Virus record (IMG/VR): IMGVR_UViG_3300044723_004952
Span: 1 to 30,023 of that record
Strand: one strand, 5' to 3'
Source: a virus
Lineage: Duplodnaviria > Caudoviricetes
Length of the DNA: 30,023 nucleotides
Of the stretch, positions 3,979-28,200 are shown one piece after another (the first letter of the stretch is position 1; the number at the start of each line of letters is the position of its first letter). The notes beneath the pieces were generated by a model. It was not told the origin of the DNA. It saw only the letters and a program-made list of their open reading frames with translations, and ran no database searches. The position numbers were made by a program, and so were the translations under genes.

Positions 3979-4311
3979 ATGCTCGATTCTAATAAAGAAA
4001 TTGTAGTTGATGGGGTTAACTACACTGGTGAGGTTTGGGATATCTTTGCCAACCAATTTAGATCCGAGCTCGCTAGAGCGGAAGAAGAACAAATCAAGTT
4101 GATGCAAGCTGAGCGTCGATTGACTGGCGGTGAGCGAAAAAATTTAGACTTTGGGTATCTTAGATATAAGCTCTGCCCAGAAGTCTATAATTTTTGGAAG
4201 GACAAGATCCATGAGAATATTTGGCAGGACAAGGGTTTTAAAAAATGGTTAGACAATCGTTTCGGTGATCTAGTTAAAATTAAATCAGTCTCTGACAAAA
4301 TTATTGTCTGA
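3979..4311 (+). CDS. Hypothetical phage protein (110 aa)
   Basis: ORF between capsid and adaptor genes, with a TGATG overlap into the next gene. Confidence 0.75.
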   Translation: MLDSNKEIVVDGVNYTGEVWDIFANQFRSELARAEEEQIKLMQAERRLTGGERKNLDFGYLRYKLCPEVYNFWKDKIHENIWQDKGFKKWLDNRFGDLVKIKSVSDKIIV

Positions 4312-7300
4312 TGAGAAGCATTGCTTATTCGGCAATCGAAAGGGGTGTTGCAGCAACTGCTGGAGTAGACCCAACCAGTATTCTTAGCCATGAAAAAGTA
4401 CTACTGGCAGAATATATAACTGATGCGGTAAAGTACTGCTGGGATTATTATCCATGGGCAGAATTTACTAAGACGGAAGTAAGATATTTCCGTGACGAAT
4501 TTGATCCGTCTAGCACCTATCCAGTAGGTAGTGAGGTTTATTATGACGGAAAGTATTATAGAAATTACCAAGAGGCTACAGGAGGCACTCCATTAGACTT
4601 AGTGTTTTGGTATGAAATTGGTGACATTGATGATGCACCAGAATGGACGGAGAATGGCTGCTACTATATAGGGGCTAAGGTTCGGTATAAGAACAAACTT
4701 TACCTTTGCGTCAGCGAACCAACTGACCCGATAGCGGCTTACGGCAACCAGCCATGTTGCTTTGAGGTAAATGGAATAACGCCAGAAAGTTCAAACTTTA
4801 TTGAGATAAGCATTAAGTTTGATCGCTACATTTCCTATGAGCAAGTCGGTAGAGATATTATCGGAACTTGTTTATCTATTACCCTAGAAGATCCTCGGTA
4901 TAATGATACGACTCCATTGAACTGGAGAGAGGGCAGGGAAGGAATTTATATAGACCCATATGACAAAACCTTTAATGAGGTCTGGGTTCGGTACAGGATA
5001 GAGTCCCCAGTTTTTAATGCGGACAGTGCTGACGAAGAAGTTCCAAATTTCTTAGCACAGGCAATAAAGGCTTATGCGTATAAACACTGGCTGGTGGGGG
5101 ATGGTCAGCACGAGAAGGCGCAGTTACAAGACATGTATGGGCTTGACTTGCTAGTTCGTGAGCTGGACAAGCTAGACAGCCAGCAAGACAGGGCTGCACC
5201 CTTTACGATCACAAAAGAGCCTTACAGGAGGCTTAATGCAAAGCAGAGCCATAAAGCACCAATCACTGCTGAGCAAATTGCAGCAGTCAAGAAAGGGCTC
5301 GCAGAAATTGCCATGTCAGTGGACACAGATTTTAAGGGTAAAAATGCTGTGGTTAAGGCAATTATCGATGGTGACCCAATACTGGATCTTATTGTAACAG
5401 CACTTAATATCGTGCGGAAAGGTTACCCACAAATCTTCTTGAGGCTGAAGCCTGATGTCCGTGCAAAGAACGCAGCCCAGTACAGAGAGGTACAGGTGTT
5501 TACTAAGGTTTACACAGGCAAGGCTTACCGCTCAATAAACATTGGTCAGGTAAAAGCCCTGAAGCTCAATGTAGTGTGGAGTCCTCCGATAAATGGCAGG
5601 GTTAATATTTACTCGTCTCAGGTTGCAAGAAACTGCGTCAAGCAGTCTACCATTAAGGTAATGCCCACAAGGGTTTCTTGTGATTCGGTAATTGGCTACA
5701 ATCCAGTTAAGTTTGGGAACGCTTATCTGGCTGCTGTAATTACTGCACAAAATGTCCAAGCTAAGAATATCGTCGGACAGGGTGTAAGTGTTGCACCTGT
5801 CCGTATAGATGGTGTCTTTAATGGCAGGAATGTAGTGCAGCGAGGTTACAGCACGGCTGCAATAGCAATCACAGACATAACACAGGGCGATAATATAGTT
5901 GTTAAGGGTGTGGCTACAGCCGCAGTGTCAGTTGTTACTCAAGTACTTGGTAAGAATGCAATAGTAAAAGGAGAGTCAACTGTGGTGCTTACTACCAGTC
6001 TTATTGCAACTAGTCACAGAGAGAGACTCAGGGAAGCATCAACTGTCATAACTTATAAAATTACTAATGGTCGGGATAGTGTTGTACAGCTATGGAACAG
6101 TCGAACAACGCCACAAACTGACAGTAGGCTTAATTTATCAAGTATACCATCGGCTGGTTCAGGCAGTGTCAGCCATATATTATTCGAAACAATGGGAAGA
6201 AGGACGCAGCCAGAAACAGGGCAAAGTTATTTACCCACAATGGCTACAAGACTGGCATCTGTAACACTGCAAGAATTTTTCAGTACAAACCAGCAGTTTA
6301 AATTAGTACATACTAGTGAGTTTGAGAATGAATCATTTTTTAGTGGAAAGTCAGTAAAGTGGTATGACTTGCCTAACACTTCCCTTTCTCAAAATGATGG
6401 TTTCCATACAACCAGAAACATTTATGAGGATATGCTGCTAGTGGGGCAAACTCCGATAAATATTCATGTGCCAGAACACACCAATGGGGAGTCAGAGGAA
6501 AATATTCAAGGCTATTTAATTGCATATTTCCAAAAACCAAGAATTAATCAGAGCAGTCATTCGGGTACACGCCAAATGTATTTTGGCTCACTTAGTGAGC
6601 TGTTACCGCAAAACACTACATCAAATAATGGGTATGGTGAGTTTGATCAGATTGCAGCTTCTTCACCTAAAGCAAATCACCCTCGCGGTTTATTTTCTGA
6701 TAATTTTCAGTATTGGTCTGGGAATGAAAATGATGCATTCGCATGGCAGAAAAATAATGGGTATATGATTAAGTTTAGGATCTTATTAGAAAATGCAAGA
6801 CCTACTACACCCTACGGCTTCGGTTACGGCGCTAATGACCTCATTCTTGATAATTATGATTATCTGCAATCAATATATTTAAATTCATCAGTTAGTAGTG
6901 GAACTTTAGGCAGTAATACATATCAAAAAACTCCTGTAACTGTCACAGGTGCATACTGTTTAGATCCAAATTACTCGCTAGATTTTGACAATCCTACACA
7001 ACCAAAAGATACTGGTTTGATTCAAAATGTGATATTTGCAGCACAAAAAGAAAGTGCAGATTTATCTGGTCAGTACTGGAAATACAATCAACCGCCAGCC
7101 CCTTACAGGGAGCACGCTATTGTGCACGACAATACAAGCCAAGATCCTTGGGATACTCGCACGGCACTATACACTGCTGACCCCTCATGGAATCAAGCAA
7201 GTATGCCATTTACATGCAATGTAATCCCAGATGGATTGCCAACAACTTTTCCAGAAACATTTGGGGAGTCGGCACACTTAGACTGGGCAAATAATGACTG

Positions 7301-7355
7301 GGTAACCATAGGGCAATGCACCAATAAGAATGTGGTTATTGCAGAAAAAGAATAA
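4311..7355 (+). CDS. Head-tail adaptor-like protein fused to a repeat-containing fibre extension (1014 aa)
   Basis: The first ~290 aa look like a podovirus adaptor (helix, WDYYPWAEF, VWVRY, EVPNFLAQAI helices) with two small aromatic modules inserted (YPVGSEVYYDGKYY; YYIGAKVRYKNKLYLC). These are followed by ~21-aa beta-rich repeats and a ~430-aa C-terminal region. Position after the capsid gene fits an adaptor. Confidence 0.65.
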   Translation: MRSIAYSAIERGVAATAGVDPTSILSHEKVLLAEYITDAVKYCWDYYPWAEFTKTEVRYFRDEFDPSSTYPVGSEVYYDGKYYRNYQEATGGTPLDLVFWYEIGDIDDAPEWTENGCYYIGAKVRYKNKLYLCVSEPTDPIAAYGNQPCCFEVNGITPESSNFIEISIKFDRYISYEQVGRDIIGTCLSITLEDPRYNDTTPLNWREGREGIYIDPYDKTFNEVWVRYRIESPVFNADSADEEVPNFLAQAIKAYAYKHWLVGDGQHEKAQLQDMYGLDLLVRELDKLDSQQDRAAPFTITKEPYRRLNAKQSHKAPITAEQIAAVKKGLAEIAMSVDTDFKGKNAVVKAIIDGDPILDLIVTALNIVRKGYPQIFLRLKPDVRAKNAAQYREVQVFTKVYTGKAYRSINIGQVKALKLNVVWSPPINGRVNIYSSQVARNCVKQSTIKVMPTRVSCDSVIGYNPVKFGNAYLAAVITAQNVQAKNIVGQGVSVAPVRIDGVFNGRNVVQRGYSTAAIAITDITQGDNIVVKGVATAAVSVVTQVLGKNAIVKGESTVVLTTSLIATSHRERLREASTVITYKITNGRDSVVQLWNSRTTPQTDSRLNLSSIPSAGSGSVSHILFETMGRRTQPETGQSYLPTMATRLASVTLQEFFSTNQQFKLVHTSEFENESFFSGKSVKWYDLPNTSLSQNDGFHTTRNIYEDMLLVGQTPINIHVPEHTNGESEENIQGYLIAYFQKPRINQSSHSGTRQMYFGSLSELLPQNTTSNNGYGEFDQIAASSPKANHPRGLFSDNFQYWSGNENDAFAWQKNNGYMIKFRILLENARPTTPYGFGYGANDLILDNYDYLQSIYLNSSVSSGTLGSNTYQKTPVTVTGAYCLDPNYSLDFDNPTQPKDTGLIQNVIFAAQKESADLSGQYWKYNQPPAPYREHAIVHDNTSQDPWDTRTALYTADPSWNQASMPFTCNVIPDGLPTTFPETFGESAHLDWANNDWVTIGQCTNKNVVIAEKE
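5337..6011 (+). repeat. Degenerate 21-23 aa protein-level repeats within the 1014-aa protein
   Basis: [GA]xN-anchored units begin at 5337, 5400, 5463, 5625, 5694, 5760, 5823, 5886 and 5949. Examples: GRNVVQRGYSTAAIAITDITQ, GDNIVVKGVATAAVSVVTQVL, GKNAIVKGESTVVLTTSLIAT. Confidence 0.8.
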
Positions 7356-7390: not shown

Positions 7391-7822
7391 ATGAGTCAAG
7401 CAACAGATTATTTAGAGGAGAAAATTTTAGATGCCATGGCAACGCTGGGCAGCTTTGATTTTGCTTCTGGAACAGTAACGAGTGGATCAGGTGGATACAT
7501 TGGTCTTTTTACTTCAGCGCCTTCTGACAGTGCTGCTGGGACTGAGGTTTCAGCATCTGGTACTGCCTACACACGGATTCAGATTGGATCAGCTGGACAA
7601 GGTAGCTTCAATGCAGCATCTGGTGGAGAGATTGACAATGATGCAGAGTTCCGCTGGGCTGATGCTTTAGCTGACTGGGGAACGATTACCCATGTTGGGC
7701 TATTTGATGCATCCACTGGTGGAAACTTGTTGGTCTACGGACAGCTTCAAAGCTCTGTTGTCATCGAGCTAGGTGACATCTTTAAAGTTCCAGCAAACGG
7801 ATTTACGATTCAGATGAACTAA
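7391..7822 (+). CDS. Virion accessory / fibre-associated protein (143 aa, widespread phage family)
   Basis: Recognisable signature DYLEEKILD..YIGLFTSAP..GTEVS..YTR..WGTITHVGLFDASTGGNLL. GAGAGGA SD at 7376-7382. Confidence 0.8.
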   Translation: MSQATDYLEEKILDAMATLGSFDFASGTVTSGSGGYIGLFTSAPSDSAAGTEVSASGTAYTRIQIGSAGQGSFNAASGGEIDNDAEFRWADALADWGTITHVGLFDASTGGNLLVYGQLQSSVVIELGDIFKVPANGFTIQMN

Positions 7823-8465: not shown

Positions 8466-9988
8466 TGCCTAAGTTCCGCAGTCATGGACAATTAGACGAT
8501 CCCTATCTTGAGGATGGGGATGGTATGTTTGTCGGTATGGATGCGTATACTGAGCCTACTTTATTGCCCGAAGGTATGGTGCAGTTTAGTGTCAACATGC
8601 GGTTTGATCAGGGTACTGCACGAGTTCGGAAGGGATTAAGGAAGGTTCGCGAGATTGCAGGAATCCAAAACCTATTAGCATTTCGAGACCCTGACGGCAC
8701 TAATGATATTTTAGCGGTGACAAACAACGCACTTCTGGGAGTTACTAATTCTACAAAGGTCTTGCCTTTGGCGAACCCAGTAAGCAACGGCTTTGCGATT
8801 CAAGCCTTTAACGAGGTTATAGTTTTTGATGAAGGGCAACGCCCACAATTTTCAGATGGGGATAATTCTTTTACAGCATTCCCTGCTACTCCTACAGTAA
8901 ACCAGCCTGAGTTTACGCAATGTCCAAACGCAGGGTTTGGGACTTACATGTCTAATAGGCTGATAGTGCCAGACTATGCAGATTCAAGCACAACAGTTCT
9001 AATTAGTGACTTGCTGGACAAAAATAATTTTCAGATAGGAACAGGAGAATTTTACGCCAACAAAGGCACAAACGATAAGACAATTGCCTTTTGTCCCTAC
9101 CAAGAATCTCAAATTTTAGTGCTAAACGAAAACAGCATTCATATAATTGGGAATGTCCATTCACTGGACTCAACCAGCTTCGAGATTACTCGGCAATATG
9201 GAATCGCAGGGACTAGGGCTTTTGCACAAAATGGAAGCTATATTTACTTTGTATCAAACGAGGGAGACATTCAGGTTTTAGTGCCTAGTAGTGATCCAGC
9301 AAAAGGACTAGGTATAAGTGTCAGTAAGGTTAACTTAGACCAAGAGCCTTTATCAAAACAAATTACCCCCTTGGTAGAAAGACTCAATCTAGACGCTATC
9401 GATAAGAGCATTGTTCATTACCATAAGAACCGAGTTTATTTTGCTGTTCCGTACATTATTGACCCAGCTAATCCACCGACAGAGCCCACTGTTTTGTTGG
9501 TGTACAATAGCTTGCAGTCAAAGTGGGAAAGCGTCGATATTCTGCCAGTAGGAATAAAAGCTATTTCTAGCCTTCTGGGAAAACTATATATCGCTAGTTC
9601 TGATGCTGTCTATGAATATGAGTCTTCAATAGATGATGATGGCACTTTAATTAATGGTAAGCTGATTACGCGACAGTATGTTTTAGGCAGCCGAGATATT
9701 AAAAAATTTGTCCGTGGATCTATTGGGTATGCTGCTGAAAATGGCAGCAGCACGGCAATAAATGTTTATACTAAAAACCCAGACAATACTATAATTTCAA
9801 AGATAATAGTAGAGGACGATGATGACTTTGATAGGCTCACCCGATTTAATGCTCGCAAGCGTGGGTATAGTGCTAATGTGGAGGTCAATGCCACTAGTGG
9901 TCAGAGTTTACAGACCGAGATCAAGAGGGTAACCCTAGAGGGTTTTGTAGGCAACGGAAGGGCAGGAGGCGTTTACGATGGCAATTAA
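8465..9988 (+). CDS. Tail nozzle / head-stabilisation protein (analogous to P22 gp10 or T7 gp12; beta-propeller-like)
   Basis: 507 aa, beta-rich, with N-terminal FVGMD..LPEG..SVNMRFDQGTARVRKG, YIYFVSNEG, LSKQITP and LLVYNSLQSKWES features. GTG start overlaps the upstream TAG. Position in the tail module fits. Confidence 0.75.
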   Translation: MPKFRSHGQLDDPYLEDGDGMFVGMDAYTEPTLLPEGMVQFSVNMRFDQGTARVRKGLRKVREIAGIQNLLAFRDPDGTNDILAVTNNALLGVTNSTKVLPLANPVSNGFAIQAFNEVIVFDEGQRPQFSDGDNSFTAFPATPTVNQPEFTQCPNAGFGTYMSNRLIVPDYADSSTTVLISDLLDKNNFQIGTGEFYANKGTNDKTIAFCPYQESQILVLNENSIHIIGNVHSLDSTSFEITRQYGIAGTRAFAQNGSYIYFVSNEGDIQVLVPSSDPAKGLGISVSKVNLDQEPLSKQITPLVERLNLDAIDKSIVHYHKNRVYFAVPYIIDPANPPTEPTVLLVYNSLQSKWESVDILPVGIKAISSLLGKLYIASSDAVYEYESSIDDDGTLINGKLITRQYVLGSRDIKKFVRGSIGYAAENGSSTAINVYTKNPDNTIISKIIVEDDDDFDRLTRFNARKRGYSANVEVNATSGQSLQTEIKRVTLEGFVGNGRAGGVYDGN

Positions 9989-10502
9989 GGCTTTAGTGAT
10001 TCCTGCTGATCCTCCCGAAGTCGGGAGCGATATGCTTACGGCATTGAGGAACATCGGTGCACCAGAAGTTTTTGTGCCTACTGATAAGATTACGATAGGT
10101 GCAGGAGAAACCTTACAGGTAGATGGGACGCTTGTAGTAAATGGTACAATATCGGGAAGCGGTGCTCCTACAGGTGGTGGGTCTGGTACTGGTGGAGCAA
10201 CAGCACTTAATGGGTTGAATGATGTGTCCATAGCATCCCTAGATGTTGGGGATATTTTAAAATGGGACGGCACTGCTTTTACAAACCAAAGTGATGCTGT
10301 CGGGGCTACTAGCTTAGCTATAGGGGACTTGACTGATGTTGCTCAAGCAGACTACGCAGACAATTCAGTTTTGCAGTACGACAGTGCGAGTTCGAAGTGG
10401 ATCGCGCGAGGTGCTGTTCAGTTTATAGAGGGTAATATTGATGGTGGCGTAGCTTCGTCCACTTACAGTATTGATCTTAATATAGATGGGGGTGCTGCAT
10501 GA
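9978..10502 (+). CDS. Short tail-fibre-like protein (174 aa)
   Basis: Two fibre repeats (LNGLNDVSIASLDVGDILKWDGTAFTN; IGDLTDVAQADYADNSVLQYDSASSKW) and a double C-terminal IDGG motif. Confidence 0.75.
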   Translation: MAIKALVIPADPPEVGSDMLTALRNIGAPEVFVPTDKITIGAGETLQVDGTLVVNGTISGSGAPTGGGSGTGGATALNGLNDVSIASLDVGDILKWDGTAFTNQSDAVGATSLAIGDLTDVAQADYADNSVLQYDSASSKWIARGAVQFIEGNIDGGVASSTYSIDLNIDGGAA

Positions 10503-10738
10503 GTGTTCGCAGGATTCAGATACGCAGAGATTCCGCAGAGGCATTTTCCACAAGAAACCCAACGCTACACCAAGGTGAGCTTGGGCTAGATATTACCAAT
10601 AAAAGAATTAAATGTGGTGACGGATTCACCAGCTGGAACGATTTAGATTATATAGACAAAACCGCAATGGATGAGATCAGGGAAGAATATGGGGATGAGG
10701 TCTCGTTTATCACACAATATGAACTCCACAAGGAATAA
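10499..10738 (+). CDS. Stand-alone Mtd_N-like (major tropism determinant N-terminal / hyaluronidase N-terminal) fibre domain, 79 aa
   Basis: RIQIRRD..NPTLHQGELGLDITNKRIKCGDGFTSWNDLDY matches the family signature. ATGA overlap with the previous gene. Confidence 0.85.
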   Translation: MSVRRIQIRRDSAEAFSTRNPTLHQGELGLDITNKRIKCGDGFTSWNDLDYIDKTAMDEIREEYGDEVSFITQYELHKE

Positions 10739-10743
10739 ATAAA

Positions 10744-11193
10744 ATGGCAGAACCAACAGACATACTAGGAAAAATCGGCAAGAAAGTTGCCACAGAAATT
10801 AAAGCGGTCAAAGACAATATTACTGGAATCAGTAATATATCAGGAAACCTTTCAATAGGTGGAAACCTAACAGTGCTGGGTGAGACAACAACACTCCAGA
10901 CTGCAACGCTAGAAGTCGAAGATAATATCATCGAACTTAATAAAACTGCAACAGGTGAAAAGGGTGCAGACACTGCTGGTATTGCTGTCAAGCTAGGCAC
11001 TGACCCTGATGCGACTTTAATCTGGGACGATACCGCAGCACAAAAGAACTGGAGCTTTAAAAAAGGTACAGCCTTGGCAGATGTTTCTGCTAATATTGCT
11101 GCACCTGATGGCGATGGTGTAAAGATCAATACTGTAAGTGTCGGTGACTACGCATCTTTTGAGACTGAGTTAAACGCAATTTTAAATCCCTAA
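10744..11193 (+). CDS. Fibre segment protein (149 aa)
   Basis: Common phage-fibre motif GNLTVLGETTTLQTATLEVEDNIIELN followed by ATLIWDD. Paralogous to the next gene. Confidence 0.8.
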   Translation: MAEPTDILGKIGKKVATEIKAVKDNITGISNISGNLSIGGNLTVLGETTTLQTATLEVEDNIIELNKTATGEKGADTAGIAVKLGTDPDATLIWDDTAAQKNWSFKKGTALADVSANIAAPDGDGVKINTVSVGDYASFETELNAILNP

Positions 11194-11196
11194 GTC

Positions 11197-12141
11197 ATGC
11201 CAGCACCAACAGACATTTTAGGGAAGATCGGTCAAGCGATAGCTGCCGAGGTCAATAGTGTTCAAGAATTAGTTGACAATTTAAATGAAGTCACAGGTGA
11301 CTTGACAATCAATGGCAATTTGACTGTTGGTGGACAAACAACCACTTTGCAGACCACTACGCTTGAGGTTGAAGACAATATTATTGAGCTGAATAAAACT
11401 GATAGTGGGGCAATGGGTGCAGCTACATCTGGCATTCAGGTGCACTTAGGGCAGCAACCCAGCTCATTTAATAATCTTAGCTACAGTGACACCAGTGAAG
11501 CTAGTTATGACGCACACTGGGGGGCTACTGCTCAAGGTGCAACAGTTCAAGATAATCCCACAGCCTATACAACAGGTGCTAGTGGCACTCCTACAATTAC
11601 AGTGACCTTGGAAAATGGCTTAGAGGCAGAAGCCATTTTAAGGCGTAGGTATTTCCTTAGAAAGGATAGTAGCTACGACTATGATTATGCAATCTTGTTC
11701 AGCCTAGGAGGTAGCAATACTAGAACCATTAACGGCATAACAGGGTCTGGAATTTTTTTAGAAGACTATAGTGATGGCGTTGCAGCAACACTATCATCGC
11801 CAGATCCAAGGGCTGATAAAAATCAGTTAATAGGTTTATGGAATGTCAGTGGCGTATTATTGCAGACAGAAGGCTGGAGCTTTGACTGGACAACGGAACT
11901 GTATAATGGGATCACGAATTTAGTAATCAACTCATTAGAATTTACTCAGAAATACACTCCTTTAAATCCAGCTACCATTATCTGGAACAATGATAATAAT
12001 AAGTGGGAGATTAAGCAGGGATCAGATATTGCCAGCGTTAAGGCGAACTTCAAAATCGCATCTGGCTCTGCTCTTACTATGAACGGAGTTGCTTTAGGTG
12101 ATTACAATAATTTTCTAACAGGGTACAATTACACTCCATAG
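11197..12141 (+). CDS. Fibre segment protein (314 aa), paralogue of the previous gene with a ~165-aa insertion
   Basis: Shares PTDILGKIG, GNLTV.G.TTTLQT.TLEVEDNIIELNKT, AT.IW and the terminal GDY..F with 10744-11193. Confidence 0.8.
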   Translation: MPAPTDILGKIGQAIAAEVNSVQELVDNLNEVTGDLTINGNLTVGGQTTTLQTTTLEVEDNIIELNKTDSGAMGAATSGIQVHLGQQPSSFNNLSYSDTSEASYDAHWGATAQGATVQDNPTAYTTGASGTPTITVTLENGLEAEAILRRRYFLRKDSSYDYDYAILFSLGGSNTRTINGITGSGIFLEDYSDGVAATLSSPDPRADKNQLIGLWNVSGVLLQTEGWSFDWTTELYNGITNLVINSLEFTQKYTPLNPATIIWNNDNNKWEIKQGSDIASVKANFKIASGSALTMNGVALGDYNNFLTGYNYTP

Positions 12142-12146
12142 TAATA

Positions 12147-12467
12147 ATGCCTAGCACTATATTAGGGCAGATTGGGACAGCTGTAGGAGGGTGGTTACAC
12201 CCTCTTGCAATGTCTTCGGCTACCACTGAGAGTAAGGATTATTTCAATGAACTTTCGTACTCAGATGGTAACCTCTCAGCCATTAATGTTTATGTAGATA
12301 ACGCAAAGACCCAGCACCTGTTCAACAAGGTCTTTACATATGATGCTACAAAAAGATTAATAAGTGTAGTGACTACAAAATATGCAGAACTAGATAATGT
12401 AATTTACACCCAGACAATAGCTTACGACTCAGACGGAAATGTCATGTCGATTACAAAGGATTTCTAA
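12147..12467 (+). CDS. Small fibre-associated protein (106 aa) with YD-like beta repeats
   Basis: N-terminal TILGQIG motif like the two preceding genes, then repeats SYSDGNL, TYDATKRL and AYDSDGNV. Confidence 0.7.
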   Translation: MPSTILGQIGTAVGGWLHPLAMSSATTESKDYFNELSYSDGNLSAINVYVDNAKTQHLFNKVFTYDATKRLISVVTTKYAELDNVIYTQTIAYDSDGNVMSITKDF

Positions 12468-14722
12468 TGAGTTTTTTAGAGGCAAGTGGCATAATTACAC
12501 AGACAGGCATAGACACTAACCTAAGTGGTTTACAAGGCGTGACAGGGGTTACTGTCGTTGATAATGGGTCTCACAAAACTTATCACCTTGATGGTAAACA
12601 ATTAAGAGTTGATGGCACTTTGACTATTGATCCACAGGTGGAATGCTTACTTTTTGAGCGACAACACCTAGACATATATGGCACATTGAATTTTGGTGTA
12701 ACCACTAATATTGGTGGTGCTACTAGATACTCTCGCGCGATTGGTTTAATATCTCATGATACTGGATATGGGCATAATAATGTGACAGGGTTCTTGATAC
12801 GAAGCGGAGGCACTTTAAATTGGAACGGAGGTGCAATGAAATTACGAGGTGGTTGTGATTTCAAAAATGGATCAACTGTAAATATAACGAACGGAATCAT
12901 AATTGCCATAAATTCGGCGAGTCAAAGACTTCGGATGAACTCTGCCAATTGCTCAGTGGACGGACTCTCCATTGACGGCAATCTCCGCTTTGATGTGTTC
13001 AAGACATTTGTAAAATTTGATAGGTACAATCCTAGTTTTAATGCTACTGGTATAATTCAAAAAGTGGGAAGCTTGGATGGTGGAACTGATGACCCTCTTG
13101 TACTTACAGATTTTGATGCCCAAGGGATAGAATCACCCAATGGTGACTTCCTTGGTAGTAGTTACAGAGCGACTAAAATTGAGTTCGTTAACATGGGGTA
13201 CACAGGCGATTTCAATATAAGCCACGATAGCACAGGTGGGGCATCTGCCGTCTCCACACTCTATAAAGATATTAATCTGAAAATCGTGGATACCAATATC
13301 TCAAATATTGAGGGAGCTAAATATTGGACTACCGACAAAGATAATGGCAGTAGGTTTTCTGGAACTGCAATTTGGCGCGGCTCGCAGAATGCCAATGAAA
13401 CATTTTCTTCGGACAGAGTCTACACAGGATCAACTGACTCAAGTGGTGAAGCAACGGAACGACTACTGACCCGTGCATGTTACGGAGGGGCATCCCCTAG
13501 TGGTGTTTACAATGGCTTAACAACAATAGATTATCGTGGCGAAACTACTGACAATACAGATGTTTTTAATTTTTATGTAGCTTCCTACGGACACACCTTA
13601 AATAGTGTCTCCCCCTCGTGCCTTGGCACAGGAGTTCTTGAGCAACAAGTGGTTTTATTTGCTGATGTATTTTTGACGCAGTCTGATAAAGCCACCGTAG
13701 ACGCTTATACCGAAATAGACACGCCACAGAAGTTCTACGACAGGGCAAAGGCTTACTTGGTGGATAACTATGCTGGAGAAACTGATGTCTTTGTTTCTCG
13801 TGATGGTAACACCATAGATGCGGGCTCTTATGATGTAGTGGTAGACGCAAGCGCAGGCTCGGTATTTGCGATTAGCGGTAACACTTTAACAATCAAAGCC
13901 ACCGCATTTGTGGGTAATATTAGCACAAATGGAACTACTACTTTATCTAGTGGTGCGAAGGTCATTGGTACATTTGGGGCAACCACGGTTCTTCCCTGGG
14001 AAGTAAAAAATGTGGAAGCGACCACAAGACTACAGCTTTATAATTTAACTAAGAATGCACTTGTAATTACGCAGAAATTATCTGGCACAGCAGGTACTTA
14101 TGTAGATGCAACTGGTACATACGACCAAACTGAAATTTCAGAAGGAGATGTTATCCGACTGCGATGCACTTGTGTAGTAGGGGCAGAAGCAATGCTACCC
14201 GTTGAGATAACGGGCGTTGCGACAAGTACGGGTATTACATTCTCAGTAGACCAAGTATCCGACGAAGTATACAATTCTAATGGTATAAATGGAAGCACGG
14301 TATCCACATTAACGGCAGACTACAACAGCCCAATGGGTGTAGATGTATCGGATGCGGATGGCACGGCAAGTGTTAAAGAAATCTATGCATTCTTTGTGTA
14401 TTCCACTACAACGGAAGATGGAGTGCATTTATGGTTTGGTGGAATGCGTGCTATTGATAATGCAAACTACGAAGTGATTGTAGATAATGCTGATATAAAG
14501 ATTCAGAATATTGGTAGTAACTCAGTAGTTGTAACAGATGGTAGAATGTACCGGGACGACGGCGCATCTATTTTATACGCGGAGGATGGTGACAAGCCAA
14601 TATCCATGGACTCAGGTGCATTAGTAACAAGTATTCAGCCTCAAGTGGAGGCGGGTTTAAATGCCAACGCAAAGATTGCAAGCATGGACAAGAACTCTAA
14701 ATTAATCCCTGCTCTTCTATGA
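12467..14722 (+). CDS. Large beta-rich virion protein (751 aa), probable spike / receptor-binding or surface protein
   Basis: Gly/Thr/Asn-rich beta-strand periodicity suggestive of a beta-helix, located in the fibre cluster, TAATG overlap. Function is inferred. Confidence 0.6.
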   Translation: MSFLEASGIITQTGIDTNLSGLQGVTGVTVVDNGSHKTYHLDGKQLRVDGTLTIDPQVECLLFERQHLDIYGTLNFGVTTNIGGATRYSRAIGLISHDTGYGHNNVTGFLIRSGGTLNWNGGAMKLRGGCDFKNGSTVNITNGIIIAINSASQRLRMNSANCSVDGLSIDGNLRFDVFKTFVKFDRYNPSFNATGIIQKVGSLDGGTDDPLVLTDFDAQGIESPNGDFLGSSYRATKIEFVNMGYTGDFNISHDSTGGASAVSTLYKDINLKIVDTNISNIEGAKYWTTDKDNGSRFSGTAIWRGSQNANETFSSDRVYTGSTDSSGEATERLLTRACYGGASPSGVYNGLTTIDYRGETTDNTDVFNFYVASYGHTLNSVSPSCLGTGVLEQQVVLFADVFLTQSDKATVDAYTEIDTPQKFYDRAKAYLVDNYAGETDVFVSRDGNTIDAGSYDVVVDASAGSVFAISGNTLTIKATAFVGNISTNGTTTLSSGAKVIGTFGATTVLPWEVKNVEATTRLQLYNLTKNALVITQKLSGTAGTYVDATGTYDQTEISEGDVIRLRCTCVVGAEAMLPVEITGVATSTGITFSVDQVSDEVYNSNGINGSTVSTLTADYNSPMGVDVSDADGTASVKEIYAFFVYSTTTEDGVHLWFGGMRAIDNANYEVIVDNADIKIQNIGSNSVVVTDGRMYRDDGASILYAEDGDKPISMDSGALVTSIQPQVEAGLNANAKIASMDKNSKLIPALL

Positions 14723-14803: not shown

Positions 14804-17086
14804 ATGGCTAGTAACATAACTAACGACGCAAGTGGGTCCCCGGACCTTTCTAATAATCAATCAAACATTAAACTAAGGCAGAATACAGGAGGAACCCCTC
14901 TTGCTCATGCTGATGTTGACGGAAACTTTGAAGTCTTAAGGTTAGGTCATAATGCAGTGGTTACTGCACTAGCTAGTAAATTAGCAAGTTCACACGCAGG
15001 CACTGGTGGTGGTGCTCACTTAGATGCAACCACATCGGTGGCTGGATTTATGTCTAGCACCGACAAGAGTAAATTGAATGGTATAACTGCGGGTGCTAAC
15101 GCATACACTTTACCTGCAGCACTTTCCGGCACTATTGGTGGAGTAAAAGTAGCATCCAATTCTAATATTTCCTTAGCAAGTGATGGCGCAATATCAGTAG
15201 CGCAGGCATCTAGTGCTACAAAAGGGGTAGTTAGGGTTGATAATAGCACTATTACAATTAGTTCTGCGGGCGTAATATCCGCAGCAGCGCAGTCTAGCTA
15301 TACTTTGCCTGTTTCGACTGCCAGTACTTTAGGTGGCGTAAAAGTTGCAGCATCAAGTAATATATCAGTCGACGGTAATGGATTTATAGATGTTCCTGTA
15401 TATGATGCTGCTTACGAAGGTGGTGGAGTTTTTGGTAGAAGTCTTGCTAGGATGGGCGTATCGTATGATTCTTCTGTAGGATCAGACTTGATTCGCAGGG
15501 ATAGTGTAGCGGCATTGACTACAACTGCTACAGAGTTTACTCCATTTGGCCAAACAACCATAGCATCAGACGATGCATTATATGTAGTTAATGGACAAAG
15601 AACAATGAAGATTTATATCCATGCAACTGAAGGCATTGATATAAGAAAAGACGCATCCGGTAGTACAATCGCTGGTGGATATGGGGACAATGACACACAA
15701 GGAGGACTAGGTAGTTATCAATTCCGTGGTGTTGTTGCTGATCCGCTTGATTCTAGGTATGATACTATTCCTCAGTATTTCATTAATTACGGACAAGCTA
15801 AAGCATACTTACAGTTTCATCATCTTGGTATTCAGAGTGTAGAGTTTTGGTTTCTTACTGATGTTACTGAAGACTTGTACCCTTACGGTAGTGGAACAGC
15901 TCCTCATGACGCACATTACTTTAAGGAAAAGTTGTATTCACCTTTTCAGAATGGTGAGCGACAGGTCAAGCAATGGAATGTAACCTTTAAGGGGGGAAGA
16001 ACATTTATACATTACTCAACAGCTAATGTGCATATTGAAGATTTAAGTATAAATATAAATTCTAACGGCCAAGGATTTTCTCATGTATCTGTAGTTACGG
16101 GTGGTGGTTATTTATACCTAGCTGGATATGTAGGCGTATGGGCTGATAGATATTGTGATTTTGGTATATGGGGAGCCTCTAGGCAGTCAACCATTTACAA
16201 CTTCTCAATGGGTGATTATCGAATTAATAATGACCCTAGTAATGGTGGGCGATCTGAGCTATTCCCTTCTTATATTTATCACCTAGATAATTCTCAATGT
16301 AAGGAACTCACATCGTATGGTAATGCAATTTATAACCACGGTGCCTATGCAATGAGATGTGATGGATGGTGGGGCACTGCAAAACTAGCTAATGGATCAG
16401 ATTATCAGGTAACAAATTTCAACATTCCCCACTCAGGTAGTGATGAAGATGCTAGTGTGATGGGTTGGCCAGACGGGTCTTCTACTGGGACTGCAGTACA
16501 AAAGACAATGGCACAAGGTGGATCAGCAGAAGATATTTTCCCTGCCATAGGGCCATACACTCAGATTGTTGGCGCTAGGCAAACATACGATCCATTAGTC
16601 ACAGCTTTTGCAGCTCCTGCATTTATGTCATCTGGAGTGGGTAATACTGTTTCATTTGCTAATTATACAGAATTTACAGGAACAAATTGGGAGGTAGAGC
16701 CTGTTCAGTTGAATAATTATTGCTTCACTCCTGTGATGGGTCAAATACTGTGGGGTAGCACATTAAACCCTAATGTAATGCCCATAGATGGATTCCAAGC
16801 GCTGTTACAAGTGTCGCAAGCATCCTCAGTAAATTTCCCTATTACCATAGCAAACCCGATACATAGTGTAAATTCAGGACTAGCTGCTGGTACAACCAAA
16901 GGAAGGTACTTCCACTTCTTCAAGCATGGATATGCTGGCGGGGATGCTTTTAATGCTTCGACCGCAGACGAGACTTCCTCACACGCCACTGATTCAAATG
17001 GAAATTCTTTTAATAGGTATTTTCCTACCACACCTAATTTCCACGCACAAGATGCAGCTTGGATACCAACCGCTAACTTCGCTTAA
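14804..17086 (+). CDS. Tail fibre / receptor-binding protein (760 aa)
   Basis: N-terminal anchor-like LRQNTGGTPLAHADVDGNF, the fibre motif ATTSVAGFMSSTDKSKLNGI, two YTLP..GGVKV repeats and a large C-terminal beta domain. It is followed by a fibre chaperone. Confidence 0.85.
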   Translation: MASNITNDASGSPDLSNNQSNIKLRQNTGGTPLAHADVDGNFEVLRLGHNAVVTALASKLASSHAGTGGGAHLDATTSVAGFMSSTDKSKLNGITAGANAYTLPAALSGTIGGVKVASNSNISLASDGAISVAQASSATKGVVRVDNSTITISSAGVISAAAQSSYTLPVSTASTLGGVKVAASSNISVDGNGFIDVPVYDAAYEGGGVFGRSLARMGVSYDSSVGSDLIRRDSVAALTTTATEFTPFGQTTIASDDALYVVNGQRTMKIYIHATEGIDIRKDASGSTIAGGYGDNDTQGGLGSYQFRGVVADPLDSRYDTIPQYFINYGQAKAYLQFHHLGIQSVEFWFLTDVTEDLYPYGSGTAPHDAHYFKEKLYSPFQNGERQVKQWNVTFKGGRTFIHYSTANVHIEDLSININSNGQGFSHVSVVTGGGYLYLAGYVGVWADRYCDFGIWGASRQSTIYNFSMGDYRINNDPSNGGRSELFPSYIYHLDNSQCKELTSYGNAIYNHGAYAMRCDGWWGTAKLANGSDYQVTNFNIPHSGSDEDASVMGWPDGSSTGTAVQKTMAQGGSAEDIFPAIGPYTQIVGARQTYDPLVTAFAAPAFMSSGVGNTVSFANYTEFTGTNWEVEPVQLNNYCFTPVMGQILWGSTLNPNVMPIDGFQALLQVSQASSVNFPITIANPIHSVNSGLAAGTTKGRYFHFFKHGYAGGDAFNASTADETSSHATDSNGNSFNRYFPTTPNFHAQDAAWIPTANFA

Positions 17087-17088
17087 TC

Positions 17089-17412
17089 ATGGAATATTCT
17101 AAAGATATAGTTTATGGGGACTACGATCCTCATGCCAACCTAAGATCAGATGTGAATGGCAACCCTACTCCATTCTCCGAGTATGTAGATTTAAATGGAG
17201 TTGGTTCAGTACCAGACAATAGTAAGACTACAATTCGGGTTTACAGGGATGCATTACTCGCATCATCTGACTGGACGCAAGCTGCTGACTCTCCCTTAAG
17301 TGACGACAAGAAAGCAGAGTGGGCCACTTACAGACAGGAACTCAGGGACATCACAAGTATCGAAGATCTCGCTGGTGTTCATGATACACGCTGGCCTGTA
17401 ACGCCCGTTTGA
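17089..17412 (+). CDS. Tail fibre assembly chaperone
   Basis: Family signature RDALLASSDWTQAADSPL..EWATYRQELRDIT..WPVTP. Confidence 0.9.
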   Translation: MEYSKDIVYGDYDPHANLRSDVNGNPTPFSEYVDLNGVGSVPDNSKTTIRVYRDALLASSDWTQAADSPLSDDKKAEWATYRQELRDITSIEDLAGVHDTRWPVTPV

Positions 17413-21736: not shown

Positions 21737-22279
21737 ATGTACAGCCCTCGATTAGAGCACGGAAGCCTGACCAATTCGCCTCCTGAGGAAAACCTAACAT
21801 ATGGCGAGCAGTATAATGCACTCGTTAATGCGCCAGATAGGGAGCAGTTCTTAACCGGTGTAGGCACTAGCGCAGCGCTTACGCCTGCTGTAAATAGCTT
21901 AATACCAAATGTGCCCGTAAAGCCTGGCATGTTAAATGAGATGGCTCGCATAGGAATGAAAGGAGTTAAAGGAGTGGGGGTTCCTATGCTTACTTATGAG
22001 GCGGGAAACGCAGGTTACAAATTGATAGATGGAGTTTTTGATCACCTTGAGGAGGCTGTCCCTGAAGCGCAGAAAAGACAAAGGGAGAATTACGAGACAA
22101 GGGAGGAGATGATGCCGGGAGTTGTTGGGGTGAACGATAATCCTTTGGTAATAGAAGAGAAGACTACCATGGAATTTACTCCAATGCCCATGGAGGAGTT
22201 TATGCCAAAAGCAGAGGGGAATACTACAGAAGAAATGTCATTTGATGATATTCTTAAAGAATTAGAACAACCCATCTAA
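21737..22279 (+). CDS. Hypothetical protein (180 aa), probably virion-internal
   Basis: ORF between ejection-like genes, starting 2 nt after the upstream stop and ending in a TAATG overlap with the giant gene. Acidic, Met-rich C-terminus. Confidence 0.7.
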   Translation: MYSPRLEHGSLTNSPPEENLTYGEQYNALVNAPDREQFLTGVGTSAALTPAVNSLIPNVPVKPGMLNEMARIGMKGVKGVGVPMLTYEAGNAGYKLIDGVFDHLEEAVPEAQKRQRENYETREEMMPGVVGVNDNPLVIEEKTTMEFTPMPMEEFMPKAEGNTTEEMSFDDILKELEQPI

Positions 22280-25200
22280 TGCCAAGTTTAATACCCAATG
22301 ATATTGATGATCCAATTGCTGAACAATATCGAGCGCAACTCGATGCGGTAGGGCAGGATACAAGGTTTCTCAGTAACAGAGAAATCGTCAAGAGGCTTGG
22401 GGATAGTTTAATCCAAGGTGGTAGAACTAATGATGACATTGTCTCCACCTATGGAGAGGGATTCTTAAGTAATTATTTAGACGAAAAGAATAAACCCGTA
22501 GAGGGGCAAGGTGTATTTGGAGATGCTATGGCAAGCCTTCGCAGGCAAGCCATTGGATTAGGAGAGGTTGCGCTTGGCGGAGTAGGTTTGGCGGCTGATG
22601 CAATGCCTGGTGAATTATTCGATCCCGTTCGTGATGCTGCAATGCGCAAAGCCGCGGAATTATCTCAGGCATCAGCCGAAGGGCCACAACCAACCATAGA
22701 TAGCTACGCTGATGTCCGCATGGATAAACCCATGGAGGTACTGAGGTATGGTGCAAACTTACTAGGTGGAGCATTACCTTCCGTTGCACAAGCGGCGGCA
22801 ACTGGTGGAGTTGGTGGCTTGGTTGGCGTTGCAGGTAAAGGCTTACTTAAAAAGAAAATCCGGAAAGAGCTTGGGGATATTGCGGAAGAAGAGTTAGAGA
22901 GGCTCGCCAAGAAGAAAGCATTTAAATATGGTGCAGCTGCAGGCTTGGGAGCAAGTTCTGGCATTATGGGAACGGGTGAGGTTTACGCAGAACTTTACCC
23001 ATACACGCAACTTGCAGAGACGGATGAGAACTACATAGATCCTGAAACTGCACGAAATGTATCCTTTGCGGGAGGTGCTTTAGTTGCGGGACTTGACTTT
23101 GTATCCGCAGGCAAGATGCTCAATAAGCTTATTGGTATAGGAGATAAAGCATCATCTGACTACCTGAAGAGATTGTTACGCAATCTTCCTGAAGGCGTAT
23201 TCCTCGAGGGGGCAACTGAAGGTGCGCAAGAGTTTATCATCATGGCATCCGAGAAGTATGCGCGTGGTGAGAATATGACTGAGTTCACCGGTCAGGAAAT
23301 TGAAAGGATGATCAATGCAGGAATTATGGGTGCGGCAGGTGGTTCTCAGTTTGCGGCTATTTCTGCGATACCAGGATCCAAATCTGATCCGAGGGAAATA
23401 GATGATTCAGATACCCCCAAACTTGATATGTCGCAACGCCCTGACACCGACTCGATCCTTGGTGACAGACCAGGTGAGACCCTCGGATTTGAGGTGGGGC
23501 AGGAAGTAAGTGAACCATTTGGTGTAAGTGGCACAATTGAGTCCATCACCAACGGCATGGCAACTGTGCGATCCTCAAAGGTAGATGCGGATGGGGTGGA
23601 GAGTGTAAGAATTAAGCAAGTCCCCGTGTCACATCTAGCTCCTGTATTTGAGAAGCAAGTCATACAGGATGATGATAAGCCTGATACGCCTGAACAGAAA
23701 GTAAAGAAGCAGGCAAAAAAAGAAGCAGATGATAAACCAAAAAAGATTGTAGCTGAGCCCGCCAAAAGCAGTACATTCAAAGTTCCGCAGGATGATTATG
23801 TTGAGGAGGTTGGAGCCAAAGATTTCAAGGGTGTAAGTGCTTTGGAAAGTAACGATGCGCGGGATGTGTATAATGCATTGCTACCAATAATGAATGACCC
23901 CAAGTCTGGAATTAAACAAGGCAACACCTTCGATATGGTGGGCGTAATTAAAGGTTTAGTTGCTGATGGTAGGATTACGCAAAAGATATTAGATAAAGCA
24001 ACTGCCAATGGTAACGCCGCACTTAAGGTACTAAGAACTTCCGGGATATTGGGTGATCAACGGGAAGCAGGGAATTACAACTGGAGAAAATCGACTGCGT
24101 ACGATAACCAACTTGCCGAGGATAAAGCTCTTTATAAGGAAAGAAAAAAAGCAGAGACTAGAAATAAGAATATTGAGAAGCGCGGGCTCAAAGTGGATGA
24201 AGAGAACCCGCAAGTTCTCAAGGTAAGTGGTAGCTCTGACTACTATGTTGTACGGGATATTGTACAAGACCCAAAGGATCCAATCGAAGACGGCTATGTC
24301 ATAGTAGACCAGTATTCAGATTTTGAGCTAAAGGAAAGCGTTAGGACAAATTTATATGTAGACCCAAGTGTATTAAATAAGCCAATTGTCAAAAGGGATG
24401 TTCTCGGAGAAGGAGGGAAGCCTGTAGGCATAGAGACGATTGAGATGGAAATCGAAATGCCATCCAACGCAGATTACGCAAAAGGCATTAAGTTTTTTCA
24501 TTACGGCAAAAACGGAAGACTTTTATCAAAAGCAATAGAGGTAAAGGGGGAAACGCTAGAAGACATTGGTCAAGTAATTAAGACAAATGGACCGCTACTG
24601 AAGAGATTAAAGGAAAACCCTGGTTATGTAAGTATTACACACTTAGACGATCAGGGTCAGGAGGTGGAGACTAATGTGCAGTATGATTTAGATGCGCTGG
24701 ATGGAGAACTCACAATCGGAGGCCAGGATGTCGGCGTAAATAAAATACCTATAGAAAAGCATTTCGTAGAGAAGAATGGTGTCGATCAAATCAATACCCT
24801 TCCCCGTGACTTAAAAATAGATTTTGTGCATTTTGATGACACAATAGATAATCAGGTAAAGGAAAAGGGCTTAGAGCCAGATGCAGAGAATTTAGTTAAA
24901 TTTAAAGGAAATACCTCAGGTATAGCATTCGGTGTTTTTAAGAAAACCGATAGATCTGGAGGTTTGCCCACAGATAGTATCAGGGTAGCGTCCTTAAAGA
25001 AAAACCGAAGTCGCATAAGTGGTTACTCTGCTATCGATGGGAAATGGAAGAAAATTAGCGACTGGGGCGACAGAAGCTACGAACTTATAGGCTTCATAAC
25101 GGCAGACGAAAAGTACGGGCGCGACATAGATATATACTACGAGAATGCCAGTAAGTTAAAGGACGATTTAGTGCGGGGTGGATATGTAAAAAATGCACTT

Positions 25201-28200
25201 AGCCAAGATAATATTCCTGCACATGTAGAGAGAACACTGGCTGAGGAGTACGATATCTCATCTAAGAAGGATCCAAAAACAAACAATTACGAAAAAACAT
25301 TCCGGAAGCTAAGGCAGAGAGAAAGGGAACTTGCCTTTGAAAACCCAGAAGAAGATTACTCAGTAATTTCTGGTCAGTACAACCTGGAGAAAGATAGTCC
25401 ATTAAAGGAAGGGGAGGACAAAGAGCATAAGGATCTCATGAGAAAACTCCTTCAGCTTCAGGTGGATCTTGAGACTTTAAGTCAACTCAAGAAGAAGGGT
25501 GCAACTTTTGAGAAAAGTGACATAGCACCTTTTCGTGACCAAGATGCATTTTGGTTATTAACTGTTCTTGAGAGAAACTACCCTTTCTGGAATGAACTTA
25601 TGGATCTTGAGAATGGTCCTATCGCTCTTTATACACGAAGTAATGATCTAAGGAGGAAAAAAAATAGCGGGTCTGCATTAAGTCAAGAAGACTCGGAGTT
25701 CTTAAATAGAACTGAAGCAATCTTTACTCGAGAGGACACAAACGGTAATCCTCAAAGGATGAGTCTCAAGGAAATCCTTGAGGAGTTTCACTTTAAGGAT
25801 GCAGAAGATAGTACGAGAAGAGTCCTTTTGCGTAATGCGGCACGATCCATAATACCCGAGAACTCTAAAATCGAGGTAATAAGTAAGCCTATAGCGGATA
25901 AGCTACTGGATGTATTCAATGAACATAAGAAACACAATACAGCCACACTTCTTGATGATGATACACCTGAAGTAATAGATGATGCAAGACAGTCCCCGGA
26001 AGGGACAATGGCTCTACTTAAACTATACTTAGTCCGTGCAGGAATGAGTGCGGATGACGCAGGTAAACTACTTAAGGAATCTAGGCACGCAGGTGTGGCA
26101 GATCAGGGAAGGGGCGCACAGCTAAGAAGCCAGGGTAAACTAAATGAAGCTAAAGATAAGGAAATCTTTATAAATGAAGATAACTTTAATCCTGCGGATA
26201 TACTGAAATCAATAACTTTAGAGAGAAGACGGATTAAGGGCGAACCAGAACCCGATCTTTCATATGACGCAAGAACTGGCACTAGGAATAAGCAGGTAGA
26301 TAGAGCATTTGATATGCTGAAGGAAAAGATTCCTTACTACAAAGATCTGATGCGAGAAGTGTATAAGCCTCAAGCACAAGGTGAGTCAGTCTTTCTTACT
26401 CCTGAAGATCAAGTGTCGATAGATGACTTGAGGCAAATCTCGAGCATGTACGGTGCGGATGGTAGGAATGAGTTTCAGGCAAAAATACCACAGAAGCCTG
26501 ATCTTGTTACAGGTGTAGTCGAGCCAGCTCGCAAGTTACCACTCACTCCAGAAGATATTGAGGCAGATGGAGTATTGGCTGCGCAGTCTGAGACTGCAAT
26601 CATTGCACCTGAACAAAACCCAATGGAGGCAGGTGGGTACCCCGAGCTTGTCACACTTGCTCAGGGAGCGATTGATAAATTTGTAGGAGAAGGAGATTCT
26701 CAAGGTACATTTAGTGCAAAGCTTGCCCTGGACAAAATCATCAAGGATGTAAACCCAGACTTTGTAAATTCTGACTCACTTACATTTTGGGCTTCCATGT
26801 TGAAGGGTAGTAACTCCCTTAATGATGTGCGGATCCGATTTATGCCATGGAATGAGTTCCGTAAATATGCACGAGTCACACAGTATGGCGTAACTGCTGG
26901 TGTGTACATCCCGAGTAATAATGAGATTATAATTACAGATACATTCTACAATGATCCAGATAAGAAGATTTCTGCGGATGAGGCACTCGCCAACCTGCTT
27001 ATACACGAACTAACCCATGTTCCTGTCCGGTTAGGGATACTGGTTGGTGCGGCAACAATTACAGGCAATCAACACATCTTGGAGGAGATGTCTAACTTGG
27101 GTTTAGGGGTCGATAATCAAGGGCTGGCAAAAATATATCAAAATGTAAAAGATGTAATCATTCCCTATCTTCATGAGATCAATAAAGAGTATGGAGTGAA
27201 CCCACGGGAGTATGCATTGACTTCTGTTGAGGAATTTTTTGCAGAACTTCCAAGTAATTATGAGTTGCGACACCTACTAAAGAAAGCCCGGATTACACCA
27301 GAGCTTTCAAAGCAACTGGGCATGTCATCCAAGAATCCCTTCAAGACCATATGGCAGTACATAAGAAGATTGATTGCCAGAATTATTGGTGTTGAGCCAA
27401 ACCTTTTAGACACAGCTGACAACTACCTAAAGAGCATAATAAAAAAAGCACAACCCATGGGTAAGTACATGGGGCAGTTGCCGTTTGATAATAAATATCG
27501 CAACCAGCAAATGCTATTCGATTTTGACCCGAAGGTCGAGGAAGCACCATCGGATCTTCCTACATTCTGGGGCTTGTATAAGATCAAAAAGGGTAACCCA
27601 AAGATGTATCAGCAGGTAGCCGAAGCAATCTTCAGTCCAGGTAATGAGTATTTGGATGGAGATATTGCGTACCAATATTCAAAGAAGCTAGGTTTAAATA
27701 GAAAGAAGCTGTACGCCGAGATACAACGCGCCCACGCTAGGCACAGGAGAAGAACTGGATACAGGTATAGTCAAATAGAAATTCCCACCCCTATGGATGG
27801 AGACGGATTCCTAAAAGACCATAAGTTTCATGTCACACTTACAGAAAACATTTCTAACATAGAAAAGGAAGGGATAACCTCAGGGCACCCATCTAATTGG
27901 AAGATGGCCGGCACAGGTCAAGACTATGGCGCCGGAAAAGTATTTGCCATGGATAACTACTTCGATGCAATCAAGTGGGCTACTGAAATGGAGTGGGCAA
28001 GGTACAGCACTATGGGAAATGGCTCTGTGTCAATTATAACATTTAAGGATACGCTTGATGGAGATATACAATTTCCGTGGGCTGAGGATAATGAAGATAT
28101 TATTAATACTTCCGGAAATGAAGGAAAATGGTACAAAAGACAGGAAAAGGTAAGGTCTGGTCAAATCTTGGGCTTCACCAAAGTAGACCTTGAGCATGTT

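Follow-up and report, generated by a model that had tools for sequence, protein, structure and literature searches.

Short terminal motifs as candidate couplings in a multi-gene fiber locus of a tailed phage

Phages build long fibers from several gene products in more than one way, as far as the available portions of the published accounts describe them. The long tail fiber of T4 consists of the separate products gp34-gp35-gp36-gp37, which meet at distinct joints and include a monomeric knee (PMC3004832). The neck fiber of A-1(L) is encoded by the operon gp82-gp81-gp80, whose products form head-to-tail trimers and assemble in vitro (PMC10966104). T4gp10-like docking in K1-5, G7C, KP32 and phiK64-1 relies on a conserved peptide and gives branched receptor-binding proteins (PMC6872550), the podophages GP4 and A1002 carry chain-like rope fibers in which dimers are threaded on a rope protein (PMC13730344), and gp22 of crAss001 interacts with further, less well resolved fiber proteins (PMC10172136). 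Here we examine five adjacent genes in a contig from a member of the Caudoviricetes (IMG/VR record IMGVR_UViG_3300044723_004952); the window analyzed is the entire contig of 30 kb (30,023 nucleotides, nt). The genes encode proteins of 174, 79, 149, 314 and 106 amino acids (aa) with complementary motifs at their ends, and all five open reading frames (ORFs), their lengths and the motifs were found as originally reported: a C-terminal GDxxxFxT motif (C-motif) on the 79-, 149- and 314-aa proteins and an N-terminal ILG(K/Q)IG motif (N-motif) on the 149-, 314- and 106-aa proteins.

We propose, with a probability of roughly 0.6, that these genes would build one fiber in which short, reusable couplings link separate trimers end to end. 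The double-DGG tail of the 174-aa anchor would plug into a trimer of the Mtd_N domain of the 79-aa protein. At each following joint, the C-terminal helix of one protein would pack into grooves between the N-terminal helices of the next, as modeled for 79>149 and proposed by analogy for 149>314 and 314>106. Two sub-types of the helix pair would likely keep the order fixed, and the beta-meander of the 106-aa protein would likely carry a 751-aa protein at the far end. We infer the trimeric state, the DGG:Mtd_N contact, the serial order, the 106:751 contact and the attachment to the tail.

Related marine phage loci were gathered by protein searches and by single-motif DNA scans; the scans for the N-motif and the C-motif were run separately, and neither demanded the other motif. 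Profiles trained on the window and loci L001-L033 were then applied to the window and 283 loci (L001-L283). Among 148 distinct N-motif hits, nine have no start codon and look like chance matches, and two come without upstream sequence. Of the 137 evaluable N-motif genes that remain, 132 directly follow a C-motif gene, the C-motif lying no more than 150 nt upstream, and five do not. Seen from the other side, 108 of 113 C-motif hits have an adjacent N-motif, one lacks sequence, and four are unpaired; in two of these four the protein is extended at its C-terminus, and in the other two a short insertion separates the genes. The regular succession of C-motif and N-motif genes, which the original prediction had proposed to check with profiles, is seen in these loci, in counts that show conservation and not independent events, given that the loci share ancestry and that the motifs or proteins themselves served to collect them. 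A typical locus runs from the DGG anchor through the Mtd_N adaptor, a single middle gene and the meander gene to the long gene.

More telling than the pair counts is that each motif occurs on unrelated protein bodies. C-motifs are carried by Mtd_N adaptors and by shafts, and N-motifs by shafts, by short meander proteins and by long distal proteins of 289-486 aa. In the window itself each motif is present on three proteins, but the 149- and 314-aa proteins are paralogs (55% over residues 1-100 and 36% over the last 55), so these are two independent bodies and not three. A six-frame scan of the window, with profiles partly trained on its own genes, gave N scores of 36.8-44.7 in the 149-, 314- and 106-aa genes only and C scores of 29.3-42.1 in the 79-, 149- and 314-aa genes only; the one other frame listed scored 8.8. 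Pfam, PHROGs and NCBIfam yielded no model for either helix motif. In two loci (L048:3486-5987 and L159:653-3586) the middle proteins, of 834 and 978 aa, extend 110-151 residues beyond the C-motif and the N-motif gene still comes next, so that the coupling would tolerate a side domain. In loci L024-L029 the converter-middle-meander-long block sits in contigs with another gene neighborhood and another anchor N-terminus, which makes movement of the block from one phage group to another likely. When bacterial and archaeal genomes were searched with the adaptor alignment, no match was returned.

Within the motifs, Y64, G65 and F70 of the 79-aa protein are invariant across 46 relatives, and I7, G9 and G12 of the 149-aa protein across 58 aligned sequences. 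Invariant motif sites use all four glycine codons and both phenylalanine codons, and the distance from the C-motif phenylalanine to the following N-motif ranges from 35 to 70 nt. Since synonymous codons vary freely at invariant residues, the conservation is at the protein level; on this ground and that of the variable spacing, we reject translational coupling as the origin of the motifs.

The 79:149 junction was modeled as three copies of each protein with our own alignments supplied, in keeping with the earlier suggestion to compare consecutive trimer pairs with controls. The complex reached an interaction prediction score from aligned errors (ipSAE) of 0.83, against 0.02 for the best control; 116 of 157 solved complexes reach this ipSAE mark, as do 2 of 215 mismatched pairs, counts that apply only roughly here. 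At least 96% of contacts are common to the model runs, with a partner predicted local distance difference test (pLDDT) score of at least 73. The predicted interface is confined to residues 62-79 of the 79-aa protein and 1-20 of the 149-aa protein, and its contact residues are largely the invariant residues of both alignments: F70 contacts L8, I11, G12 and K14, Y74 contacts G12 and A16, and Y64 and G65 contact I7 and L8. The helices would run parallel, since the contacts rise in step, and a single C-helix makes contact with two N-helices, as would fit a groove. The model would also account for the glycine and alanine at positions 12 and 16 of the 149-aa protein, because F70 and Y74 pack there. 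Neither sequence nor Foldseek searches found solved relatives of the 149-aa family, which makes it less likely that the score reproduces a known structure. In single-chain models, the 149-aa protein has helices at residues 7-26 and 137-147, and the 106-aa protein has an N-helix followed by a six-strand meander.

A natural fusion points in the same direction. P0102, a 189-aa protein from a cluster of three sequences, combines an anchor start (57% identity to the anchor family over the first 37 residues, E 2e-11), a C-motif, an N-motif 23 residues away and then a meander in one chain. In L341, an anchor-type start is joined to the meander through a repeat stretch and neither motif is present. 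Because both proteins fuse anchor and meander, the two would lie on one axis. Taken together, co-occurrence, the 79:149 model and the P0102 fusion support the predicted binding that the original prediction had called docking, and the helix pair is very probably a real coupling between proteins.

The helix pair also falls into sub-types. Where the adaptor C-motif has an acidic residue at position 67, the next N-motif is of the K/R type in 54 of 54 pairs; after aromatic-type C-motifs (59 pairs), it carries Q in 52, K in five and S or D in two. The K cases comprise three variant adaptors and two instances of the 149>314 junction in the window's clade. N-motif classes are fully separable, 39 of 39 and 36 of 36 members scoring best on their own class in leave-one-out tests. 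The split would fit orthogonal recognition. A salt bridge between E67 and K10 was considered as the sub-type code and dropped, as the best-listed partner of K10 in the model is position 73. Covariation of positions 71 and 14 is suggestive, with K/R absent in four of seven non-E cases against 7 of 49 E cases, over few events.

At the proximal end, the 79-aa protein matches Mtd_N in Pfam (E 9.3e-10; 38.7 bits against a curated cut-off of 26.3) and also hyaluronidase structures (E 2.9e-6), and the two IDGG motifs described at the end of the 174-aa protein are present. Among 71 adaptors, the upstream gene ends in two DxG motifs in 49, in one in ten and in none in six, the remaining six having no upstream sequence; 59 of the 65 with upstream sequence thus follow a gene ending in DxG. 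Five of the six exceptions have a replaced Mtd_N start, and in the sixth the DGG lies further from the end. As background, 66 of 1914 ORF ends across the loci, anchors included, have DGG in their last ten residues. In 13 cultured phages with an Mtd_N match, chosen to span hosts, the gene before Mtd_N ends in DGG or CGG in nine, in a DGN variant in one and in neither in three. These co-occurrences (59/65 and 9/13) support the view that the 79-aa protein converts between a DGG/Mtd_N link and the helix link, in which the double-DGG tail would be the plug. The 76 longer Mtd_N proteins, in which the domain is fused to a fiber, carry neither helix motif at 15 bits.

Other arrangements of the same elements were seen. 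Proteins of 78-81 aa in L015:5765-6001, L035, L049, L056 and L077 have an N-motif-like helix start and a DGG end, and are preceded by genes ending in a C-helix-like stretch; they would be converters in the reverse direction, one more link upstream of the Mtd_N adaptor. Arthrobacter phage Qui gp36-gp38 (L352:4506-8370) is a chain with the DGG/Mtd_N pair only: gp36 has a DGG end, gp37 an Mtd_N start and a DGG end, and gp38 an Mtd_N start. In crAss001 gp24-gp26 (L350:5593-11553), gp24 has a DGG...CGG end and the next two genes encode the Mtd_N proteins gp25 and gp26, an arrangement that is a candidate for the attachment of the outer tail fibers.

At the distal end, the original prediction placed the 106-aa protein as the tip. 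This is probably wrong: its family comprises 63 cases, and a long gene comes next in all 55 that have sequence, 37 of these long genes being complete and ending like the 751-aa protein. The probable role of the 106-aa protein is instead that of an adaptor to the 751-aa protein. Six loci have a single N-motif gene of 289-486 aa in place of the short gene, two of which (L005 and L023) also lack the long partner gene. Because the 106-aa family precedes a long gene and the replacement gene in L005 and L023 accompanies its absence, the chain likely has a sixth member of the 751-aa type. Structure searches with the 106-aa meander returned only generic sheet matches (best Z 8.8, root-mean-square deviation 3.3, 76 aligned residues, DUF3836), the other matches being uncharacterized phage proteins only. 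The meander domain is widespread and unnamed: at E 0.001 it has 842 cluster representatives, and in the 150 best hits (P0094-P0243) it is mostly C-terminal, with the N-motif present in only 18 of them.

How the two middle proteins are used is the point on which the serial chain has to be weighed. The motifs of the 149-aa protein and the C-motif of the 79-aa protein are typical of their classes. The 314-aa protein, a longer paralog with an insert of ~170 aa, has an N-motif that scores below all 39 type-1 members and a C-motif that scores above just one of 37, and the cores of the two proteins are equally conserved (mean identity 0.51 and 0.52). Diverged motifs on a conserved core are what the tuning of a new junction after duplication would produce, which favors the serial order. 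An alternative that keeps the same couplings is that the 149- and 314-aa proteins are used in parallel, as alternative shafts of two fiber types, 79>149>106 and 79>314>106. Paralogy would suit such a scheme, as would the single middle gene in most related loci, the type-1 lysine and prefix retained in the 314-aa N-motif and the fact that, among adjacent pairs, a shaft-type C-motif precedes a K-type N-motif only in the window's clade. The two shafts would then need to share their binding partners, but their motifs are strongly different, one set typical and the other an outlier; a second subfamily likewise has middle genes in tandem whose N-motifs differ (L337, L349), which does not decide the order. 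We regard parallel use as unlikely.

Less likely still is an open stoichiometry, again with the same couplings, in which a two-motif middle protein polymerizes head to tail like gp81 of A-1(L) and an N-only protein caps the chain. The available text on A-1(L) gives a precedent, with gp82, gp81 and gp80 trimers at about 1:14:1 (PMC10966104). In the 79:149 model, position 73 of the 79-aa protein adjoins K10, and the 149-aa protein has a glutamate at the equivalent position; the serial model itself requires a type-2 C-helix to bind a type-1-like N-helix. Set against this, the full separation of the N sub-types is what would be expected if self-binding were avoided, and middle genes range from 149 to 978 aa through internal repeats and inserts, suggesting that length is set within the gene. 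That variation also limits the earlier idea that fibers change by whole genes: swapping is seen in the six loci in which one N-motif gene replaces the short gene, but length varies mostly inside the middle gene. That there is no coupling at all, the motifs being duplicated trimerization or capping helices or a by-product of translational coupling and their adjacency plain synteny, is very improbable, since the paralogous middle genes and the abutting or overlapping neighbors would fit, but the codon variation and spacing, an interface lying entirely on the two motifs, their side-by-side retention in P0102 and their unrelated carriers would not.

Several observations weigh against the serial chain as proposed, besides the relatedness of the loci and the three cultured phages that have no DGG gene ahead of Mtd_N. 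One junction of four (79:149) was modeled, with the 3:3 stoichiometry imposed, and the sub-type split may rest on only two ancestral junctions. By its scores (27.3 versus 17.8), the 314-aa N-motif still falls nearer to type 1, the class that normally follows an Mtd_N adaptor. At 0.38 identity, against a family minimum of 0.50, the body of the 106-aa protein is an outlier too, and its diverged motif says little because the body has diverged throughout. Four canonical meander genes have no scoring C-motif upstream, and six meander genes of the SILY-type N-motif subfamily are not preceded by a C-motif gene. In four SILY-type loci (L318, L337, L345 and L349) middle genes stand after the long gene, as a tandem of two in L337 and L349. 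Gene order is not a strict code, and its role as one is overstated in the original prediction.

A helix pair of similar appearance is found beyond the loci closest to the window. Unannotated three-gene cassettes of the phrog_4757 or phiN3 gp88 type occur in 13 cultured phages of other hosts, with the downstream gene examined in 12; the upstream gene has a similar C-helix, the middle gene both helices and the next gene an N-helix. In PhillyPhilly, gp38-gp41 present in turn a DGG end, Mtd_N with a terminal helix, a two-helix middle protein and a tailspike with an N-helix, and searching with middle proteins of this type found 12 further phages of Actinobacteria and Proteobacteria. Profile comparison of window-type and phiN3 gp88-type N-helices gave an HH probability of 92.5% (E 4.8e-7) and that of the C-helices a weak 29.6% (E 5.7e-4), with N-against-C controls at E 0.12-0.78. 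Window-type N families rank first and second of 21 terminal families against the cassette N-helix; against the cassette C-helix, the shaft C family ranks first of 23 and the adaptor C family fourth, below an unrelated DGG family. The N-helices are likely homologous and the C-helices may be, although our position-specific motif profiles score the cassette motifs below threshold. The shaft differs: the window's middle proteins have no phrog_4757 match at E 0.01, whereas PhillyPhilly gp40 matches at E 1.5e-31. No solved relative of the phiN3 middle protein was found.

The window holds a podovirus-like structural module (Table 1) with an SU10-type capsid, a Gp80 fiber protein, a 507-aa nozzle-like protein, the five genes and more fiber and core genes. 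The capsid, Gp80 and nozzle-like genes lie upstream of the five, with tail-fiber and structural matches in PHROGs, and the nozzle-like gene (phrog_578, E 9.8e-6) precedes the 174-aa gene, whose N-terminus likely attaches the fiber to the virion. The five are adjacent structural genes with fiber-type domains in a virion module, as in a T4-type multi-gene fiber. No family was found for the 751-aa protein in Pfam, PHROGs, NCBIfam or Atlas, where leads were all below 0.9, and an Atlas search with the 314-aa insert likewise gave only leads below 0.9.

Table 1. Positions in the window of the proposed fiber genes and their end motifs
Feature	Position	Strand	Remarks
174-aa anchor protein	9978..10502	+	phrog_13853, E 3.7e-10; double IDGG at end
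Double IDGG motif, residues 154-157 and 169-172 of 174-aa protein	10437..10493	+	putative plug for Mtd_N trimer
79-aa converter, Mtd_N (residues 6-43) and C-motif helix	10499..10738	+	Pfam PF18454
C-motif type 1, residues 62-79 of 79-aa protein	10682..10735	+	entire predicted interface on 79-aa side
149-aa middle (shaft) protein, N-helix 7-26, C-helix 137-147	10744..11193	+	shortest of its family
N-motif type 1, residues 1-20 of 149-aa protein	10744..10803	+	entire predicted interface on 149-aa side
C-motif type 2 of 149-aa protein	11137..11184	+	family-typical; 8 of 37 family members score lower
314-aa paralogous middle protein	11197..12141	+	insert of ~170 aa without assigned family; both end motifs diverged
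106-aa protein, N-motif helix 5-22 and six-strand beta-meander	12147..12467	+	likely adaptor for next protein
751-aa protein ending KLIPALL	12467..14722	+	likely distal partner (putative)

Elsewhere in the window, a 1014-aa protein (4311-7355) with repeated short motifs in its middle adjoins the Gp80 homolog (7391-7822, PF23140), a pair that by eye resembles the rope-and-dimer fiber in the available description of GP4 and A1002. A 760-aa protein with head-fiber repeats (PF11133) and then a tail assembly chaperone (PF16778) occupy 14804-17412 and form a further, separate fiber system. An open plus-strand frame of 2588 codons (22258-30021) runs off the window; it has no Pfam match above cut-off and, judged by position, is possibly an ejected core protein.

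Attachment and exchange of receptor-binding parts set phage host range, and the outer parts of fibers are often unresolved in cryo-electron microscopy maps, crAss001 being an example. Reusable couplings would let fiber parts be added or swapped gene by gene, and couplings readable from sequence would allow fiber architecture to be predicted from gene ends. They would give a role to unannotated genes in phiN3, PhillyPhilly and Caulobacter C2, and would offer protein design a small trimer-to-trimer connector. Whether tailed phages share a portable coupling kit, comprising a DGG tail for Mtd_N trimers and a C-/N-helix pair with orthogonal sub-types, with converters both ways and an assembly order readable from gene ends, we consider an even bet; such a kit would provide assignments for many hypothetical genes of cultured phages and would explain how Mtd_N proteins such as crAss001 gp25 and gp26 and the phage hyaluronidases are attached. 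Multi-gene fibers assembled end to end are already known from T4 and A-1(L), while no description appears to exist of the couplings, of their reuse or of the converter proteins. The original prediction knew of no earlier description of the motif pair, and neither motif pair was found in the literature searched, whose scope excluded most subscription journals and supplements; the accessible part of one preprint (bioRxiv 10.64898/2026.02.20.706991) mentions no helix, motif or docking.

Among described systems, as far as the accessible accounts go, GP4 and A1002 share with this phage the principle of multi-protein fibers and a Gp80 homolog, but theirs is a fiber system separate from the five genes. 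In T4gp10-like systems, as would be the case here, an exchangeable protein is attached to its partner through a short N-terminal peptide; the acceptor there is a folded domain and the arrangement branched, whereas here the acceptor would be a terminal helix. No match to the T4gp10-like family was found among the window proteins in Pfam, PHROGs or NCBIfam, and the 79-aa protein leaves no room for such a domain beside Mtd_N; the insert of the 314-aa protein has no assigned family. The A-1(L) neck fiber resembles the present locus in having three genes that act as anchor, middle and cap (PMC10966104). It docks by N-terminal beta-hairpins onto globular beads, with ~14 middle copies, whereas the N-termini here are predicted helices and would dock helix on helix. 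The T4 long tail fiber, to whose proteins no sequence match was found among those of the window, is, like the fiber proposed here, made of separate, mostly trimeric products placed end to end and encoded by adjacent genes in proximal-to-distal order, but its joints are distinct and not one short motif pair reused at several of them. Finally, the phage hyaluronidases and crAss001 gp25 and gp26 share the same N-terminal Mtd_N domain; there it is fused to the fiber, whereas here it forms a free 79-aa converter.

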